The notes beneath the pieces were generated by a model. The model worked only from the letters and a program-made list of their open reading frames with translations. It was not told the origin of the DNA and searched no databases. A stretch of 34,947 bases of DNA from a virus: UHGV virus genome UHGV-0108399. One strand, given 5' to 3'. Of this stretch, positions 10,147-30,364 are shown one piece after another. The stretch's first letter is position 1; each line of letters opens with the position of its first letter. Both the position numbers and the translations under genes were made by a program.

Positions 10147-10999
10147 TATTGCAACCGTAACACATTTAAGGCCTTCACAACGGCCTGTGGAGCGTCGTGT
10201 GGCAGAAGTTGAAGATGGTTATACCCGTCTTGCAAATGCCCTGTATGAAGAGCTTATCGGCGCAGATTTAACGAAAAATCAGAGCAAGGTTGCCCACGCC
10301 ATATGCCGTAAAACATACGGCTACGGTAAAAAGATGGATCGCATCTCTGATAGTCAGTTAGCTCAAATTACCAGGCTGCCAAGACAGAAGGTAAACAAGG
10401 CCAAGAATGAGCTTATCGCGATGAAGGTAATCCTTCGCGAAGGCCAGCAAATCGGGCCTAACAAGAACATCGAGGAATGGCAAATCGAAGGGTGTCACTA
10501 CTCTGGTGATAATGTCACTGCATTGGTGACAAAAAGTGTCACCAAAACGGTGACAGCGCTGTCACCAAAACAGGGACACACAAAAGAAACTATTACAAAA
10601 GAAAAAAGAAATAATAAAAACACTATGTCCGAAAGTGTTCGGACGGAGTGTGAAAAATCATCTGACCGTCACGAAGAAACCGACAAGGCATTCGAGGAAA
10701 TATTCTGGTGTGCAGGCATGCGGAAAGCCGGGAAGAAAAACGCAGCTTCAGCATTCAGAACACAGTTCAGGGAATGGCGTAAAACTACCAGGGGTACGGC
10801 AAGCGAGTTTGCCACGATGCTGGCAGAAGACATCGCATGCAGGAATGGTAAGCAGTTCGGATTCGACAGGTTGTTACCATCGAGCTACCTGAACGGTCAG
10901 CGCTGGAACGACGAAAAGCCAGAAACCATTCAACCACAATCCAAACCATCATCCGCAATCACCGTATCGAAAACTGGCTACGTGTTTTTCGACAGGTGA
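10139..10999 (+). CDS. O: Replication initiator, lambda O-like N-terminal domain
   Basis: N-terminal ~110 aa ([56 protein letters not shown] ... GPNKNIEEW) resembles the lambda O N-domain; C-terminal half is unrelated to lambda O. Confidence 0.8.
10504..10620 (+). repeat. Putative replication origin: GGTGAC / GTCACC iteron palindromes followed by an A-rich segment, inside the O-like gene
   Basis: GGTGATAATGTCAC, GGTGACAAAAAGTGTCACC and GGTGACAGCGCTGTCACC in tandem, then AAAAGAAACTATTACAAAAGAAAAAAGAAATAATAAAAA; architecture matches ori-lambda. Confidence 0.55.
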
Positions 11000-21935: not shown

Positions 21936-24101
21936 ATGGCCGACGAAAACAGACTCAATTCCATTCTGTGTAAGTTTGACGCAGACTGGATGGCGAGCGA
22001 TGAAGCCAGAACCGAGGCGACAAATGACCTGTATTTTAGCCGAGTGTCGCAATGGGATGACTGGCTATCAAACTACACCACCCTGCAATATCGCGGACAA
22101 TTCGATGTTGTTCGCCCGGTGGTCAGGAAGCTGGTCGCAGAGATGCGCCGGAACCCTATCGACGTTCTCTTCCGACCCAAAGATGGCGCTAATCCTGATG
22201 CAGCCGATGTGTTGATGGGGATGTATCGTACTGATATGCGCCATAACACGGCAAAGATTGCCGTTAACGTTGGCGTTCGTGAGCAGATAGAGTCCGGCGT
22301 TGGTGCATGGCGTCTGGTCACACAGTACGAAGACAACGACCCAACAAGCAACAATCAGGTAATCCGACGCCTGCCAATCCATGAAGCCTGCTCACACGTC
22401 ATATGGGACGCCAACAGCAAGCAGATGGATAAGAGCGACGCTAAGCACTGCACGGTGATTAACGCTTTGTCACGCAATGGCTGGAAAGAGTTCGCAGAGG
22501 ATTACGGTATTGATCCGGATACCTTGCCATCTTTCCAGAATCCGAACGATACATGGCTGTTCCCTTGGGTATCGAATGATGTCGTCTACGTCGCTGAGTA
22601 TTACGAGGTCGAAGAGAAGAAAGAGAAAGTCTTCATCTACCGCGACCCGCTGACAGGTGAGCCGGTCAGCTATTACCAGCAGGATATCAAAGACGTCATC
22701 GACGACCTGGCTAATCGTGGATTCATTAAGGTAGCAGAGCGCAAGGTGAAGCGTCGGCGTGTGTATAAGTCGATCATCACCTGTACGCAGATACTGAAAG
22801 ACCGCGAGAAGATAGCCGGAGAGCATATTCCAATCGTTCCAGTGTATGGTGAATGGTCATTCGCTGGTGACAAGGAGTGCTACGAAGGAGTGGTAAGGCT
22901 GACGAAAGACGGTCAACGCCTTCGTAACATGATCATGTCGTTCAACGCCGATATTGTTGCTCGTTCACCGAAGAAGAAACCTACCTTCTTCCCTGAGCAA
23001 ATCGAAGGCTACGAATACATGTACGGTGGAAATGATGACTATCCGTACTATCTGCAGAACAGGACCGATGAAAACGGTAACGACCTGCCGATTGGTCCAA
23101 TCTCCTACATGGAAAACCCTGAAGTGCCGCAAGCCAACGCTTACATGCTTGAGGCTGCCACCAACGCAGTGAAAGAGGTGGCTAGTCTTGGCGTTGATGC
23201 GCAGGCAGCAAACTCTCAGGTCGCTTTCGATACCGTCAATCAACTGAACATGCGGGCAGACCTTGAGACATACGTGTTTCAGGATAACCTGGCTACCGCA
23301 ATGCGACGTGATGGCGAGATTTATGCCTCAATGGTAAACGATATTTATGACGTTCCTCGTCATGTAACGCTGACACTTGAAGATGGAAGCGAGAAAGACG
23401 TTCAACTCTATGCGCAAGTTGTCGATTACCAGTCTGGCAATGTGGTCACACTCAACGACATTCGCGGTCGATATGAGTGCTATACAGACGTTGGGCCATC
23501 CTTCCAGAGTATGAAGGAACAGAACCGCGCAGAGATTCAGGAGTTGCTAACCAAGGTTCCGCAAGGTACTCCAGAGTTCCAGATGCTGATGCTGCAATAC
23601 TTCACGCTGCTTGACGGTAAAGGCGTCGAGATGATGCGAGAGTACGCGAACAAGCAACTGGTGATGATGGGGCTGAAGAAACCAGAAACACCTGAAGAGA
23701 TGGAGATGGTACAGCAGGCTCAACAGCAGCCGCAGCAGCCATCAGCAGAGCAAATTCAGGCGCAGGGCATCCTTCTGCAAGGTCAGGCTGAATTGCTCAA
23801 GGCAGAGAACCAACAGGCGCAGATTCAGGTTGAAGCCGCCAAGGTTGAAGCCCAAAACCAACTCAACGCCGCGAAGATTGCAGAAATCTTCAACAATATG
23901 GACCTCGACAAGCAGGCAGAACTGCGTGAGTACCTCAAGCTCGTAGGTCAATTCCAGCAACAGCGCAGCAAGGACGCTCGTGCTAACGCTGAGCTGCTTC
24001 TTAAAGATGCAGACCAGACTCATTCACAACGCATGGATTTCGCGAATCTTATGCGTCAAGTTCAAATCCCCTCCGGCGGAGTAGCCGAGACACCTCAATA
24101 A
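21936..24101 (+). CDS. Portal protein (P22 gp1-like)
   Basis: 721 aa with long Q-rich C-terminal helical region, as in the P22 portal; position after terL. Confidence 0.9.
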
Positions 24102-24114
24102 GAGAGAGTTAATC

Positions 24115-25026
24115 ATGGACCAAACCACCGACATTCAGGCTTCTGAAGAATTAACCCTGCCCGGCAATCATGCAGCGGCATCTGCTGATGGCTTAGTTGT
24201 CGATAATGCCAACGACAACGCAGGTCAGGAAGAAGGCTTCGAGATTGTCCTGAAAGACGATGAGAAACCAAAACAAGACCCGGCAACTAATGCTGAATTT
24301 GCCCGTCGCCGCATCGAACGCAAACGCCAGCGTGAGCTTGAGCAGCAGATGGAAGCGGTTAAGCGAGGGGAGTTGCCGGAGCACCTGCGGGTGAACCCTG
24401 AGTTACCAAAACAACCAGACCCTAACGATTATCTTTCCGAAGACGCACTGGCTAAGTACGACTATGACCAGAGCCGCGCACTGGCTGCCTTCCAGCAGGC
24501 AAACAGTGAATGGCAGATCAAGGCTATGGACGCACGAAGCCAGGCTGTCGCCGAGCAGGGCCGCAAAACTCAGGAGTTCACCCAGCAATCAGCGCAATAC
24601 GTCGAGGCAGCCCGTAAGCACTACGACGCAGCGGAAAAGCTCAATATCCCTGACTATCAGGAGAAAGAGGACGCATTCATGCAACTGGTGCCGCCAGCAG
24701 TCGGTGCCGACATCATGCGCCTCTTCCCGGAGAAATCCGCTGCACTCATGTATCACCTTGGTGCTAATCCTGAGAAAACACGCCAGTTGCTGGCGATGGA
24801 CGGGCAATCCGCGCTGATTGAACTCACTCGACTGTCAGAACGTTTAACTCTCAAGCCTCGAGCCAAACCTGTTTCAGAAGCCCCGCTACCTGATGAACCC
24901 ATTCAGGGACACGCTGTTGCTGCAAATATCTCTGCGATTGAAAAGCAGATGGAAGCGGCAGCAAACAAAGGGGATGTAGAGACGTACCGCAAGCTCAAGG
25001 CGCAACTGAATAAAGGAATTCGATAA
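24115..25026 (+). CDS. Scaffolding protein (P22 gp8-like)
   Basis: 303 aa, same length as P22 gp8; acidic and helical; C-terminus [12 protein letters not shown] resembles the coat-binding helix-turn-helix. Confidence 0.85.
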
Positions 25027-26321
25027 TGGCATTAAATGAAGGTCAACTGGTCACGTATGCTCTGGATGAAATCATCGAAACCGTCCAGAACCTGACGCCA
25101 ATGGCGTCCAAAGTGACAAAATACACCCCTCCGGCAGAATCCATGCAGCGTTCAAGCAACACCGTGTGGATGCCTGTTGAGCAGGAAGCGCCAACCCAGA
25201 CTGGCTGGGATTTAACTGGCAAAGCTACTGGGATTCTGGAACTCTCCGTGAAATGCAACATGGGTGATCCGGATAACGATTTCTTCGAGCTTCGTGCAGA
25301 TGACCTGCGTGATGAGCGTTCTTACCGTCGCCGCATCCAGGCATCCGCCAAAAAACTGGCGAATAACATTGAGTCAGCAATTGCCAAACAGGCAACCGAA
25401 ATGGGCTCACTTGTTGTTCACGATACCCGCGCAATTGGTCCATCTACTGGCCTGTCTGGCTGGGATTTTGTGTCTGATGCAGAGCGCCTGATGTTCTCCC
25501 GTGAGCTAAACCGCGATATGGGCATCAGTTACTTCCTGAACCCTGACGATTACCGCAAAGCAGGCCGCAACCTGGTAGATGGAGACATCTTTGGGCGCGT
25601 TCCTGAAGAAGCGTATCGCAACGGTACTATTCAGCGTCAGATTGCTGGCTTTGATGAAATTCTTCGCTCACCGAAACTTCCGGCAGTTACCAAGTCAACC
25701 GCTACTGGTGTAACTGTTTCTGGTGAGCAGAAGTTTAAGCCGCAGGCATACACCCTTGATACCGATGGTAACAAAGAGAACGTCGACAACCGTGTTGCAA
25801 CGGTGACCGTATCCTCCACCACCGGATTTAAGCGCGGCGACAAAATCAGCTTCACTGGTGTGAAATTCCTGTCTCAGATGGCGAAGAACGTGCTGACTGA
25901 TGACGCGACTTTCTCAATCACCCGTGTGATCGATGGTACTCACATCGAAATCACGCCGAAGCCGATTGCGCTTGATGACGCTTCACTGACAAAAGAAGAG
26001 AAGGCTTACGCTAACGTAAATACTTCTCTTGCTAATAACACTCCGGTAAACGTTCTGAACGTGGCAACAACCACCGCTAACGTGTTCTGGGCTGATGACT
26101 CAATCCGTCTGCTTTCTCAGCCGATCCCGGTAACCCATGAACTGTTTGCTGGCATGAAAACGTCTTCCTTCAGCATTCCAGGTATTGGTGTTAACGGCAT
26201 CTTCGCAACGCAGGGTGATATCAACACTCTGTCTGGTAAGTGCCGTATTGCTGTGTGGTATTCAGCATGTGCTGTACGACCAGAGGCAATTGGTGTTGGT
26301 CTGCCTAACCAGACCGCGTGA
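25026..26321 (+). CDS. Major coat protein (P22 gp5-like)
   Basis: 431 aa; extensive similarity to P22 coat protein throughout (MALNEGQ ... [10 protein letters not shown] ... IAVWY ... [13 protein letters not shown]). Confidence 0.9.
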
Positions 26322-26365
26322 TAACCAGAGGGAGCTTCGGCTCCCTTTTCTATCTGGAGACAAGC

Positions 26366-26614
26366 ATGACACACATGATCTTTCGTCATGGCGACATGAA
26401 GAAGTGGAAAGGCGTTGGCTACGACTTTGAAATCGTGAAAGCCGAAGAGCTTCAGGAATATCTGGATGCTGGTTGGTTTTCACATCCTGATGACCTTTTG
26501 AAGGATGTTGCAGAGCCAGAGCCAGAGCCAGAGCCAGAGCCAGAAGAAAAACAGCGTAAAAAGCCTGGTCGAAAACCTAAGGCGGCAGCAGATGAACCTG
26601 ACAACGAAGGGTGA
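26366..26614 (+). CDS. Small protein with (EP)5 linker and basic C-terminal tail (82 aa)
   Basis: GGAGA RBS before the ATG at 26366; folded-looking N-terminal region, [10 protein letters not shown] encoded by a hexanucleotide repeat, then [13 protein letters not shown]. Confidence 0.45.
26513..26542 (+). repeat. Perfect tandem hexanucleotide repeat (GAGCCA)x5
   Basis: Directly visible at 26513..26542; gives repeat-amino-acid artefacts in several reading frames of the ORF track (SQSQ, GSGS, WLWL). Confidence 0.9.
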
Positions 26615-27092
26615 TTTAGTTCTTGCGGCATTACGTAAGCTCGGTGTGGCATCAAATGCCACGTTAACCGATGTCGAACCGCAGTCTATGGAAGACGGCG
26701 TCAACGACCTTGAAATGATGATGGCTGAATGGCTTGGCGGTGATGCGTCACCTGGTATCAACGTTGGCTACATTTTTGCTGATGCAGATGTTGCTCCGGA
26801 TCCGGGCGATGAGCACGGTTTATCAAATAACGCTATCAATGCCGTCATTTTCAACCTTGCCTGCCGAATTGCTCCAGATTATGCGCTGGAAGCGTCTGCA
26901 AAACTTATAACCACTGCCAGATACGGGAAAGAGCGACTCGTCAAACTGTCTGCAATGGACAGGGCAAAAGCAGCTAAATGTAAGTCCGGTTATCCAAACC
27001 GTATGCCTGTTGGTAGTGGTAACCAGTTTGCGAAGTGGAATGGTTGGAATTACTTCCACCGAAAGGAACCTTGCGATAACGGGAGCGAATAA
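26592..27092 (+). CDS. Head-completion / portal-closure protein (P22 gp4-like)
   Basis: 166 aa from [33 protein letters not shown]...; the track ORF start 26505 is a frame extension through the repeat. Confidence 0.8.
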
Positions 27093-28510
27093 TGCCTATT
27101 CAGAAACTTCCGCTTATGAAAGGTGTCGGCAAAGACTTCCGAAACGCCGATTATATCGACTATCTGCCAGTGAATATGTTGGCTACACCCAAAGAAATCC
27201 TCAACAGTAGCGGATATCTTCGCTCATTCCCGGGCATTGCCAAACGTTCTGATGTGAACGGTGTATCTCGAGGCGTCGAGTACAACATGGCGCAGAGTGC
27301 TGTTTATCGCGTGTGCGGGGGCAAGCTGTATAAGGGCGAAAGCGAAGTCGGTGATGTTGCCGGAAGTGGTCGTGTATCAATGGCGCATGGTCGGACATCA
27401 CAGGCGGTAGGCGTTAATGGTCAACTGGTCGAGTATCGCTATGATGGCACGGTTAAAACAGTCTCAAACTGGCCTACAGACAGCGGATTCACTCAGTATG
27501 AGTTAGGTTCAGTCCGCGACATTACACGCTTACGTGGGCGTTATGCGTGGTCAAAAGACGGCACGGATTCATGGTTTATCACTGACCTTGAAGACGAATC
27601 GCATCCTGACCGTTACAGCGCACAATATCGCGCAGAATCGCAGCCGGACGGCATCATCGGCATAGGTACATGGCGAGACTTCATCGTCTGTTTTGGTTCA
27701 TCGACGATTGAATATTTTTCCCTGACTGGTGCAACCACCGTTGGTGCTGCTTTGTATGTCGCACAGCCATCGCTGATGGTGCAGAAAGGCATTGCCGGAA
27801 CCTACTGCAAAACGCCGTTTGCTGATTCCTATGCGTTCATCAGCAATCCGGCAACAGGTGCTCCGTCTGTATACATCATCGGATCCGGTCAGGTTTCACC
27901 AATCGCCAGCGCGAGCATTGAGAAAATTCTCCGCTCCTACACTGCTGATGAACTGGCTGATGGCGTGATGGAATCGCTGCGATTTGATGCTCATGAGTTG
28001 CTGATTATCCACCTTCCGCGCCACGTCCTCGTGTATGACGCATCTTCAAGCGCTAATGGTCCGCAATGGTGTGTGCTGAAAACAGGCATGTATGACGATG
28101 TGTACCGCGCTATCGACTTCATTTACGAAGGCAATCAGATAACGTGCGGCGATAAGCTGGAGTCCGTGACCGGGAAATTGCAGTTCGATATCAGCAGTCA
28201 GTATGGTCTTCAACAGGAACACCTGCTGTTTACTCCGTTGTTCAAAGCGGATAACGCCAGATGCTTCGATCTGGAGGTGGAATCATCCACTGGCGTAGCT
28301 CAGTACGCCGACCGCCTGTTCCTTTCTGCAACCACTGACGGCATAAATTACGGGCGTGAGCAGATGATTGAGCAGAATGAACCGTTCGTTTACGACAAAC
28401 GCGTTTTGTGGAAGCGTGTCGGGCGAATCAGGAAAAATGTCGGCTTCAAACTTCGCGTTATCACGAAGTCACCTGTAACTCTGTCTGGCGCTCAGATAAG
28501 GATTGAGTAA
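27092..28510 (+). CDS. Tail hub / head-completion protein (P22 gp10-like)
   Basis: 472 aa, same length and position as P22 gp10. Confidence 0.85.
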
Positions 28511-29211
28511 TGGCGGATTCATCACTGAATAATCCTGTCGCGGTTCAGGCTACGCGCCTTGATGCTTCAATTTTGCCACGCAATATATTCAGCCAGTCTT
28601 ACCTGCTGTATGTCATAAATCAGGGTGCTGATGTCGGTGCAATTGCCGGGAAGGCAAATCATGCTGGTCAGGGCGCTTACGAAGCCCAGGTAAAAAACGA
28701 TGAACAGGACGTCGAACTGGCTGATCACGACGCAAGAATCACCGCAAACACAAAAGCGATAAATCTCCTTGAGGTCAGGTTAACAACCGCCGAAGGGAAG
28801 ATAGTCGTACTGCGTAGCGATGTTGATTACTTGCTGGATGAGGTTATCGATATTCAGGCGCATCTGGTCACTGTTGACAAAAGACTGGATAGCGTAGAAA
28901 GCGATGTATCTGACATTAAGAGTGATTACGTATCAAAAACTGTAACCGAATCGCAGTCTCTTGCGTCACCGCTGGATGTAAAAACATCATATTCAGTTGA
29001 TGGAATTCAGGTCGTTGGAGCAAGGCATACCGGATGGACAGCGGCCACAGGCACACCACTTCTTGGCTCATTCAACGCTAACCAGTCATACACAGTCGGC
29101 ACTACGTACACACAATCCGAAGTCGCAGCTATCGCTACAGGTTTGCAGCAGGCGCGGCAGCGTATTCTGGCGCTTGAAACAGCACTTAGATTACATGGGC
29201 TGATTGACTGA
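28510..29211 (+). CDS. Tail needle (P22 gp26-like)
   Basis: 233 aa, same length as P22 gp26; conserved N- and C-terminal tips, variable coiled-coil core. Confidence 0.85.
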
Positions 29212-29668: not shown

Positions 29669-30364
29669 ATGTTATATGCATTTACGCTGGGCAGAAAACT
29701 GCGCGGCGAGGAACCTTATTGCCCTGAAAAAGGCGGGAAAGGTGGCAGTTCTGATAAAAGCGCAAAGTATGCCGCAGAAGCTCAGAAGTATGCCGCAGAC
29801 CTGCAGAATAAGCAGTGGCAGACGATCATGAAAAACCTTGCTCCGTTCACGCCACTCGCTCAGCAGTACGTATCACAATTGCAGAATCTTTCCTCTCTTC
29901 AGGGGCAAGGTCAGGCACTTAACCAGTATTACAACTCTCAGCAGTACAAAGATCTTGCTGGTCAGGCTCGCTATCAGAGTCTGGCTGCAGCGGAAGCAAC
30001 AGGTGGATTGGGTTCCACTGCAACCGGTAATCAGTTAGCAACAATCGCACCAACGCTTGGTCAGCAGTGGCTGTCTGGTCAGATGAACAACTACCAGAAT
30101 CTGGCAAATATTGGTCTTGGCGCACTGCAAGGTCAGGCAAACGCCGGGCAGACATATGCCAACAACATGAGTCAGATTTCGCAGCAAAGTGCGGCTCTTG
30201 CCGCTGCTAATGCCAATAAACCATCAGGTCTTCAGACAGCAATTAGCGGCGGAGCTTCAGGGGCTATGACTGGCGCTGCTCTTGGCTCTATTGTTCCCGG
30301 ACTTGGCACTGGATTAGGTGCGGCAATTGGCGGCGGACTTGGCCTGCTTGGATCGTTGTTTTAA
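29669..30364 (+). CDS. Ejection protein (P22 gp7-like)
   Basis: 231 aa; Q/N/G-rich low-complexity region and glycine-rich hydrophobic C-terminus, typical of P22 gp7. Confidence 0.75.
   Translation: MLYAFTLGRKLRGEEPYCPEKGGKGGSSDKSAKYAAEAQKYAADLQNKQWQTIMKNLAPFTPLAQQYVSQLQNLSSLQGQGQALNQYYNSQQYKDLAGQARYQSLAAAEATGGLGSTATGNQLATIAPTLGQQWLSGQMNNYQNLANIGLGALQGQANAGQTYANNMSQISQQSAALAAANANKPSGLQTAISGGASGAMTGAALGSIVPGLGTGLGAAIGGGLGLLGSLF

Follow-up and report, generated by a model that had tools for sequence, protein, structure and literature searches.

The stretch of DNA analysed here (the window, 34,947 nucleotides, UHGV virus genome UHGV-0108399) represents an almost complete P22-like (Lederbergvirus) E. 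coli prophage. In its late operon, a small ORF is located between the genes of the coat protein and of the head completion protein gp4, and its reading frame contains a perfect hexanucleotide repeat. The features of this region are collected in Table 1.

Table 1. Late operon and anatomy of the small ORF (positions refer to the window)
Feature	Position	Strand	Remarks
Portal	21936-24101		late operon
Scaffold	24115-25026		late operon
Coat (major capsid) gene	25026-26321	+	upstream neighbour; Pfam P22_CoatProtein E 6.6e-165
Strong terminator-like stem-loop	26327-26348	+	directly after the coat stop codon; 9 bp stem, UUCG loop, then U-run
Shine-Dalgarno GGAG of the small ORF	26356-26359	+	6 nt before the ATG; read from the sequence
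Small ORF	26366-26614	+	82 aa, ATG to TGA; P22 orf69 / epsilon34 gene 6 family (phrog_1175)
Folded N-terminal domain (predicted)	26366-26509	+	residues 1-48; β-hairpin, helix, conserved GW-x2-HPDD, second helix
(GAGCCA)x5 microsatellite, (Glu-Pro)5	26513-26542	+	residues 50-59; codon register GAG CCA
Basic Lys/Pro/Gly-rich tail	26549-26584	+	residues 62-73; core net charge +7
CCTAAGGCGG, putative Shine-Dalgarno of gp4	26576-26585	+	inside the P-K-A codons; 6 nt before the gp4 ATG
gp4 (head-tail adaptor / head completion protein)	26592-27092	+	downstream neighbour; Pfam P22_Tail-4 E 4.1e-59; phrog_637 'head-tail adaptor Ad3'
Overlap of small ORF 3′ end and gp4 start	26592-26614	+	23 nt, different frames; ORF ends 20 bases past the gp4 start codon
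gp10	27092-28510		late operon
gp26	28510-29211		late operon

The stem-loop that follows the coat gene has a calculated RNA folding energy of -16.8 kcal/mol (z -3.7), and none of 200 shuffled sequences is as stable. A simple pattern-based terminator scan made no call at this position, where direct folding shows a strong hairpin; in P22 the corresponding element carries the annotation stem_loop, and in phage L it is listed as a terminator. The Shine-Dalgarno sequence of the small ORF (GGAG/GAGG) is kept in place in the corresponding alleles of SJC33, P22 and phage L. Since no promoter-like site was found between 25900 and 27200, the ORF is apparently expressed from the late transcript, and it appears to be physically coupled to gp4, whose start overlaps its 3′ end as the first-pass annotation had stated. 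On the basis of its homology with P22 gene 4, the gp4 start codon was placed at ATG 26592. A longer gp4 with its N-terminus at ATG 26505, which would read (Gln-Ser)n across the repeat, was rejected, as it lacks a Shine-Dalgarno sequence and the start codon of P22 gene 4 corresponds to the internal ATG. The element CCTAAGGCGG is invariant in the window, SJC33, P22 and phage L alleles, while the surrounding codons vary. As even P22 retains its exact nucleotide sequence and it lies shortly ahead of the gp4 start, it very probably serves at the same time as the Shine-Dalgarno sequence of gp4, and part of the P-K-A conservation in the tail is probably explained in this way.

The window protein matches phrog_1175 ('unknown function') with E 4.1e-37 over residues 1-80, and its first 51 residues also match phrog_3769, a family of 186-aa proteins. 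P22 orf69 and Sf101 gp06 score E 4.5e-31 and E 9e-29, respectively, against the phrog_1175 profile. A search of 5.8 billion proteins yielded 348 homologous clusters from Escherichia, Shigella, Salmonella and Klebsiella, and the gene was found in 217 of 5,426 complete E. coli genomes as well as in 261 IMG/VR contigs. In one-genome-per-species data the gene order coat, ORF, gp4 is constant at ten loci from 7 genera (Escherichia, Shigella, Citrobacter, Kluyvera, Buttiauxella, Yersinia and Rahnella), the coat protein being of the P22 type in every case. The slot between coat and gp4 also holds a member of the family in P22, in phage L and in CUS-3/Sf101-type phages. The coat proteins of the latter are very different, and their slot member is a 62-aa protein of phrog_1175 devoid of both the Glu-Pro (EP) spacer and the basic tail.

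Selection on the coding sequence was quantified as pN/pS for 84 loci. With values of 0.091 for the N-terminal domain, 0.088 for coat (last 900 nt) and 0.062 for gp4, the constraint on the N-terminal domain is indistinguishable from that on its two structural neighbours; the tail gives 0.59, a value calculated from 12 codons only. Of 92 loci, 91 have an intact ORF, and the remaining one (L080) carries a premature stop. By these comparative measures the small ORF is a real gene. Some databases label long alleles, or alleles with an inserted WDGH domain, as pseudogenes, and annotation pipelines have also named intact alleles 'dihydrolipoamide acetyltransferase'; translation shows the supposed pseudogenes to be intact. 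Odd-length E. coli alleles (matches of 372 and 426 bp), for which a frameshift had been considered, proved to be intact (EP)7 and (EP)16 alleles whose leader differs by 1 nt. NCBIfam holds no family for the window protein and none for the WDGH allele. The sole Pfam 'hit' of the window protein, trypanosome procyclin/PARP (PF05887, E 0.0066), was discarded: with 16.9 bits against a gathering threshold of 100 it is purely compositional, the likeness being confined to the (Glu-Pro)n composition with no homology.

The window protein is predicted to consist of three parts, namely a folded N-terminal domain of about 48 residues, a disordered (Glu-Pro)n spacer and a Lys/Pro/Gly-rich basic tail. In the AlphaFold2 model, calculated from a 12-sequence alignment, the mean pLDDT of 10-residue blocks is 86-93 for residues 1-40 and 73 for residues 41-50, dropping to 46-54 in the blocks of linker and tail, so that the earlier description of a folded-looking N-terminal part followed by a linker agrees with the model. 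The predicted elements are a β-hairpin (2-14 and 17-25), a helix (26-34), the G36-W37...H40-P41-D42 motif and a second helix (41-48). Residues Met1, Met4, Arg7, Gly9, Trp14, Gly16, Tyr19, Asp20, Gly36, Trp37, Pro41 and Asp42 are invariant. The linker reads A49-(EP)5-EE, and the tail is followed by AADEPDNEG, which is encoded within the gp4 overlap. As each unit contributes one negative charge, the net charge of the whole protein is -3 with 0 units, -8 with 5 and -32 with 29.

Orthologous tails read KKPG(R/P)KPKA, KRGRKPKA or RKGRKPKA, with synonymous codon changes in P22, phage L and other genera, which argues for constraint at the protein level. The first-pass annotation had compared the tail to AT-hooks. 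The peptide it named, KKPGRKPK, is indeed present (residues 65-72), and like the HMGA-type minor-groove peptide it is a short basic Gly/Pro stretch in a disordered region. Its core, however, is G-R-K-P and not the canonical R-G-R-P, many orthologues read G-P-K-P-K, half of the orthologues having no arginine there, and the Pfam AT_hook model (PF02178) does not match the window protein at E <= 1. Only one distant orthologue (P0134) contains RRGRPPK and hence RGRP; other orthologues carry KRGRKPK. As judged from the motif, 'AT-hook-like' describes a resemblance and not membership.

An exhaustive phmmer search with residues 1-50 against 1.8 billion (1.8e9) representative sequences retrieved no more than a handful of orthologues and, with E 3e-7 to 8e-4, proteins bearing GIY-YIG, HNH or NUMOD3 signatures in which a module of about 40 residues (...k.wInkdg..k.Vk.eeLQ.YLDdGW..G) is repeated 4-6 times. 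When the N-terminal domain is aligned to this module by hhalign, the probability is 95.9% over 22 columns, the module set having been collected with the same query. Among the 668 ORFs of the window the module HMM detects only the small ORF, with E 3e-7 over 16 residues and with the same ascertainment by this query; the next best ORF scores E 1.9 and the reversed control 1.4. Since the set was gathered with this query and the match is short (16-22 residues), a relationship of the N-terminal domain to a module from the DNA-binding region of homing endonucleases is graded as suggestive only. No Pfam model and no solved structure were found for the module, and PDB sequence searches with the orthologue profile and with the module profile returned nothing at E <= 1.

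The repeat itself is unambiguous. Tandem Repeats Finder reports period 6 at 26511-26544 with 5.7 copies and 100% matches, and this result together with the codon register agrees with the original description of a perfect 30-bp array, (GAGCCA)x5 encoding (EP)5, in a small ORF between coat and gp4. The 34-base perfect run is the longest in the window, whatever the period. In 300 first-order Markov simulations of the window the longest period-6 run measured 17 bases, and the analytic chance expectation of a 34-base run is about 5e-13.

It had been proposed that slippage would change the length of the linker without shifting the frame, and a comparison of copy numbers among related prophages had been suggested. 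This comparison shows that relatives carry 0-29 units, always in frame. The repeat number is thus not invariant, and the gene around it is intact nearly throughout, as described above. The 80 IMG/VR loci contain 4-13 units, mostly pure GAGCCA and all in frame, with arrays homogenised to GAACCA in two loci. Complete E. coli genomes contain 1-17 units, with the addition of ECONIH6, which carries a perfect (GAGCCA)x29 of 174 bp. All arrays of at least 10 units that were examined are pure, and the frame is kept in all 84 arrays dissected. Of 11 locus pairs whose flanks agree at every one of 2,800 bases, six differ by 1-4 units, and the complete genomes EC11 and MS14385 possess 10 and 15 units despite only 1 mismatch in 2,900 bases, so that near-identical prophages stand 1-5 units apart. 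A part of the copy-number differences comes from metagenome assemblies; complete genomes agree in pattern.

At the protein level, comparison of 120 clusters depicts a nearly invariant N-terminal domain and tail, with a linker that varies in length and composition. Besides (EP)n, linkers of DP, ES, ET, EQ and EL and 12-nt compound units occur, and every variant corresponds to a single-base change of GAGCCA that has subsequently been amplified. Kluyvera, Buttiauxella, Citrobacter and Rahnella carry pure GAGCCA x6-8, while Yersinia proxima carries GAGCCT x8, a synonymous unit that has been homogenised. Neighbouring synonymous sites have diverged across these genera while the arrays stay internally pure, which points to continuous turnover by slippage (concerted evolution within the array) and not to ancient conservation. 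From these comparisons the array is hypermutable, its length changing far faster than point substitutions accumulate, and it is a real, fast-mutating length polymorphism that is not peculiar to one genome. This account of the repeat we hold with high confidence. P22 orf69 and a Citrobacter allele (L092, ...HPDDLLKRGRKPKA...) contain no repeat; the spacer is therefore, by comparison of these orthologues, dispensable for whatever the N-terminal domain and the tail do.

The window was compared with SJC33, whose alternative E. coli allele combines a variant N-terminal domain, a WDGH domain and the same EP-plus-tail as the window. Both sequences are identical up to and including the hairpin after coat, then diverge, and are again identical from TTGCAGAGCCAGAG onward. 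Identity on both sides of a divergent stretch identifies the N-terminal domain cassette, with or without WDGH, as the unit of exchange. By this alignment its upstream edge is the hairpin, and EP-plus-tail is part of the conserved sequence on the right. Many proteins carry EP-plus-tail behind one or the other kind of cassette. In an alternative allele of the same slot (L002) WDGH (PF25311) is recognised with E 1.5e-39; in the window protein a Pfam search gives no match to PF25311. Elsewhere WDGH occurs together with many further accessory regions of phages, among them DUF2829 (PF11195) and PF21825. The literature searched contains no mention of a 'WDGH domain', and the main text on phage L virion proteomics does not name orf186.

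The closest known relatives are P22 orf69, epsilon34 gene 6 and orf186 of phages L and ST64T (phrog_1175, phrog_3769). They share the succession of coat, hairpin, ORF and gp4, a homologous N-terminal domain with the GW-x2-HP motif, a basic ...G(R/P)KPKA tail and an acidic end overlapping gene 4. P22 orf69, however, has 69 aa with a short, non-repetitive acidic spacer (PVEADDV), whereas in phage L and ST64T orf186 the WDGH domain is inserted between the same N-terminal domain and tail. The (GAGCCA)n of the E. coli-clade alleles is missing from both. According to the epsilon34 genome paper, homologues of 'epsilon34 gene 6' vary greatly in length, the P22 version being internally deleted, and P22 orf69 is non-essential, for which Eppler et al. 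1991 is cited (PMC2629481). The published length differences correspond to the internal deletion of WDGH and not to the repeat. The gene family and its variable length were thus already known, and surveys of simple repeats in phage genomes exist (PMC6426759, PMC3585866). Of the hypervariable EP array, an in-frame coding VNTR in a disordered linker, no description was found in the literature searched, although one GenBank record, APC_JM3.2, marks a 'repeat_region' at its position.

The arrangement of an acidic EP run directly before a basic Lys/Pro-rich stretch recalls the proline-rich spacer of TonB, where EP and KP stretches adopt the shape of extended polyproline-II rods and may pair through their opposite charges (PMC10771500). 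Contrary to TonB, the window protein possesses neither a membrane anchor nor the TonB C-terminal domain and has no Pfam TonB match; its N-terminus is predicted to be a soluble β-hairpin/helix domain in the context of a cytoplasmic phage protein, and in place of (Lys-Pro)m its basic part of about 11 residues contains only K-P ... K-P-K. The parallel is a physical analogy and not homology. With regard to gene position and architecture, the closest functional analogue would be gpFI of phage lambda, a small protein in which a flexible acidic region connects two functional ends, and whose gene lies between E (major capsid) and FII, ahead of the head-completion genes. GpFI acts as a bridging packaging chaperone between the capsid and the terminase-DNA complex and is an accessory, not a core, factor (PMC13595911). 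Homology to gpFI was rejected (hhalign probability 0.1%, no sequence or fold similarity), which leaves the link as an analogy only. Furthermore, the array resembles contingency loci of simple sequence repeats and in-frame bacterial VNTRs in being a pure short-unit coding repeat (5-29 units) whose copy number outpaces substitution. It differs from them in that a 6-nt unit permits no ON/OFF phase switch, only spacer length and charge being altered, and in that the host gene encodes an accessory protein of a phage late operon and not a surface antigen.

Taken together, we consider it on balance probable that the array is an in-frame microsatellite in a late accessory gene which encodes a three-part tether with a passive spacer. 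Replication slippage would add or remove GAGCCA units much faster than point mutations accumulate, and as each unit is two codons long, such changes never affect the frame, the tail or the gp4 start in the overlap. The spacer would act as a passive, polyanionic connector, either disordered or polyproline-II-like, with a weakly constrained length. Under such a weak constraint mutation pressure would dominate, so that alleles of 0-29 units occur in populations and variants such as ES, ET, EQ and DP can spread. At 3.1 Å per residue the spacer would extend over about 3 nm with 5 units and about 18 nm with 29 units. The protein would be made late from its own Shine-Dalgarno sequence on a transcript reading past the coat hairpin, and the basic tail, perhaps together with the N-terminal domain, may bind nucleic acid. 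As to its role, we tentatively propose, by analogy, a non-essential late helper which tethers nucleic acid near DNA packaging or head completion. Since the CUS-3/Sf101-type members contain neither spacer nor tail, the tether model cannot cover the whole family.

Alternatively, the slot gene could be accessory cargo directed at host interaction or anti-defence, with N-terminal domain, spacer and tail serving as a carrier scaffold into which a WDGH effector is inserted in some alleles. The strong WDGH match of the L002 allele in the same slot, positioned between the N-terminal domain and EP-plus-tail, the combination of WDGH with other phage accessory regions elsewhere, the reported dispensability in the laboratory and the strongly acidic character of the protein are all in line with such a role. 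Nevertheless, the gene has no promoter-like site of its own in the region searched, it is located inside the late operon overlapping gp4, and its slot is constant in P22-like lineages with very different coat types, unlike that of typical morons. Late expression would also be odd for an anti-defence function unless the protein is packaged. We therefore regard cargo as an unlikely explanation.

Quite unlikely, too, is a tuned, contingency-like locus in which spacer length and charge, changing by one negative charge per unit, modulate the activity of the protein and hypermutability is kept by selection in order to sample settings. The persistence of a pure, turning-over array across genera whose flanks show 63-80% identity, the very wide range within E. 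coli (1-29 units) and the span in net charge from -3 to -32 speak for such a locus, and the TonB simulations, which suggest EP/KP pairing, make autoinhibition of the adjacent basic tail plausible (PMC10771500). On the other hand, a unit that is a multiple of 3 provides no ON/OFF switch, orthologues without spacer exist (P22, L092), the units drift freely to ES/ET/EQ/EL/DP as weak constraint predicts, and the gene is reported as non-essential in P22. A stepwise mutation-drift model accounts for the same data. The most far-reaching version, in which a late-made tether, possibly packaged with the DNA or linking DNA to a component of the head or of the packaging apparatus, would be a 'rheostat' whose reach and charge are set by the array and selected across Enterobacterales for diversifying packaging, ejection or anti-defence performance, appears rather improbable.

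It is very improbable that the repeat matters mainly as DNA, as a conserved joint for homologous recombination at which cassettes of the N-terminal domain and WDGH are swapped. The pattern of identity and divergence between the window and SJC33 and the presence of the same EP-plus-tail behind both cassette kinds in many proteins would fit a joint, but any conserved flank yields this pattern, since the break in homology must coincide with the edge of the tail/gp4 region, and the same types of cassette are exchanged between P22 and phage L, where no EP repeat is present. Finally, the view that the ORF does not function as a gene, the repeat being either neutral non-coding spacer DNA or an artefact of assembly, is contradicted by the selection and conservation data and is almost certainly wrong, because against the pseudogene labels on long and WDGH alleles and the premature stop in L080 stand an N-terminal domain pN/pS of 0.09, the intact ORF in 91 of 92 loci, array lengths that are always multiples of 6, a conserved Shine-Dalgarno sequence, a family conserved across genera, 'pseudogene' alleles that translate intact and arrays in complete genomes.

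P22 is among the best-studied phages, and orf69, whose family occupies the slot between coat and gp4 throughout the P22-like phages, has stood as an unexplained non-essential ORF since 1991. In the clade of E. coli, Citrobacter and Yersinia the array attains up to 174 bp, which places it among the longest pure coding microsatellites observed in E. coli prophages. The natural alleles of 0-29 units constitute a graded series for the effect of a polyanionic EP spacer beside a basic tail. If spacer length were functional, the idea of contingency loci would extend to non-frameshifting tuning in a virion-assembly operon. The array is also usable as a VNTR marker to type and track P22-like prophages. 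At the same time it is a trap for annotation pipelines, as the wrong labels given to intact alleles show.

Two intact alleles of the small ORF between the coat gene and gp4 carry pseudogene labels in RefSeq/PGAP, in both cases with a shortened CDS and the remark 'incomplete; missing C-terminus'. On translation the allele of E. coli ECONIH6 is uninterrupted and carries (EP)29, and that of E. coli SJC33, equally intact, is the variant with the inserted WDGH domain; both labels look like annotation artefacts due to the repeat. A disrupted ORF is found in only one of the 92 loci, the IMG/VR UViG 2684622552_000004, where a premature stop follows codon 13 and the array as well as the remainder of the gene are present despite it.

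The repeat is also traversed by the reading frame of gp4, in which it would read (Gln-Ser)n. Because this frame stays open upstream to an ATG at 26505, ORF finders give a 195-aa 'gp4'; a start at that position is ruled out by homology to P22 gene 4 together with the position of the SD, and the real start lies at 26592. The three other tandem repeats reported by TRF in the window are all short, and none of them is perfect.

Coordinates of the features discussed
Feature	Sequence	Position	Strand	Remark
21-nt unit x2	window	29758-29808		TRF; within ORF 29669-30364
12-nt unit x2.4	window	23711-23739		TRF; Gln-rich C-terminal part of portal gene
19-nt unit x1.9	window	10923-10960		TRF; early region
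16-residue motif	window	26426-26473		small-ORF residues 21-36
Open gp4 frame	window	26505-27092	+
Small-ORF allele, ECONIH6	L001	1567-1959		labeled pseudogene
Small-ORF allele, SJC33	L002	1566-2177		labeled pseudogene
Sf101 gp06	L095	2047-2235		62-aa family member

Within the folded N-terminal domain, the 16-residue motif shows a suggestive match to a module of about 40 residues which occurs in four to six repeats in GIY-YIG/HNH/NUMOD3 endonuclease-like proteins (P0130-P0142) and for which there is neither a Pfam model nor a solved structure. At the end of this domain 11 residues are tandemly duplicated in a 93-aa E. coli allele (P0001), which is a second type of in-frame length change in the gene. 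In the 97-aa protein P0133 a nucleotide-sugar dehydrogenase-like N-terminus (MKITISGTGYVGLSNG...) is fused to the C-terminal half of the small protein; this chimera is probably an artefact of assembly or gene calling.

In some sources the small protein goes under the name 'putative dihydrolipoamide acetyltransferase' (P0021, P0028, P0082), an identity that is spurious, the match being driven by low-complexity sequence. In the record of phage APC_JM3.2 (L096) the EP array is flagged as 'repeat_region', and the gp4 gene is named 'recombinase RmuC'. For gp06 of phage Sf101 (NC_027398.1) RefSeq gives the name 'virion structural protein'; in GenBank it is a 'hypothetical protein', as are all close relatives, and its PHROG is listed as 'unknown function'.
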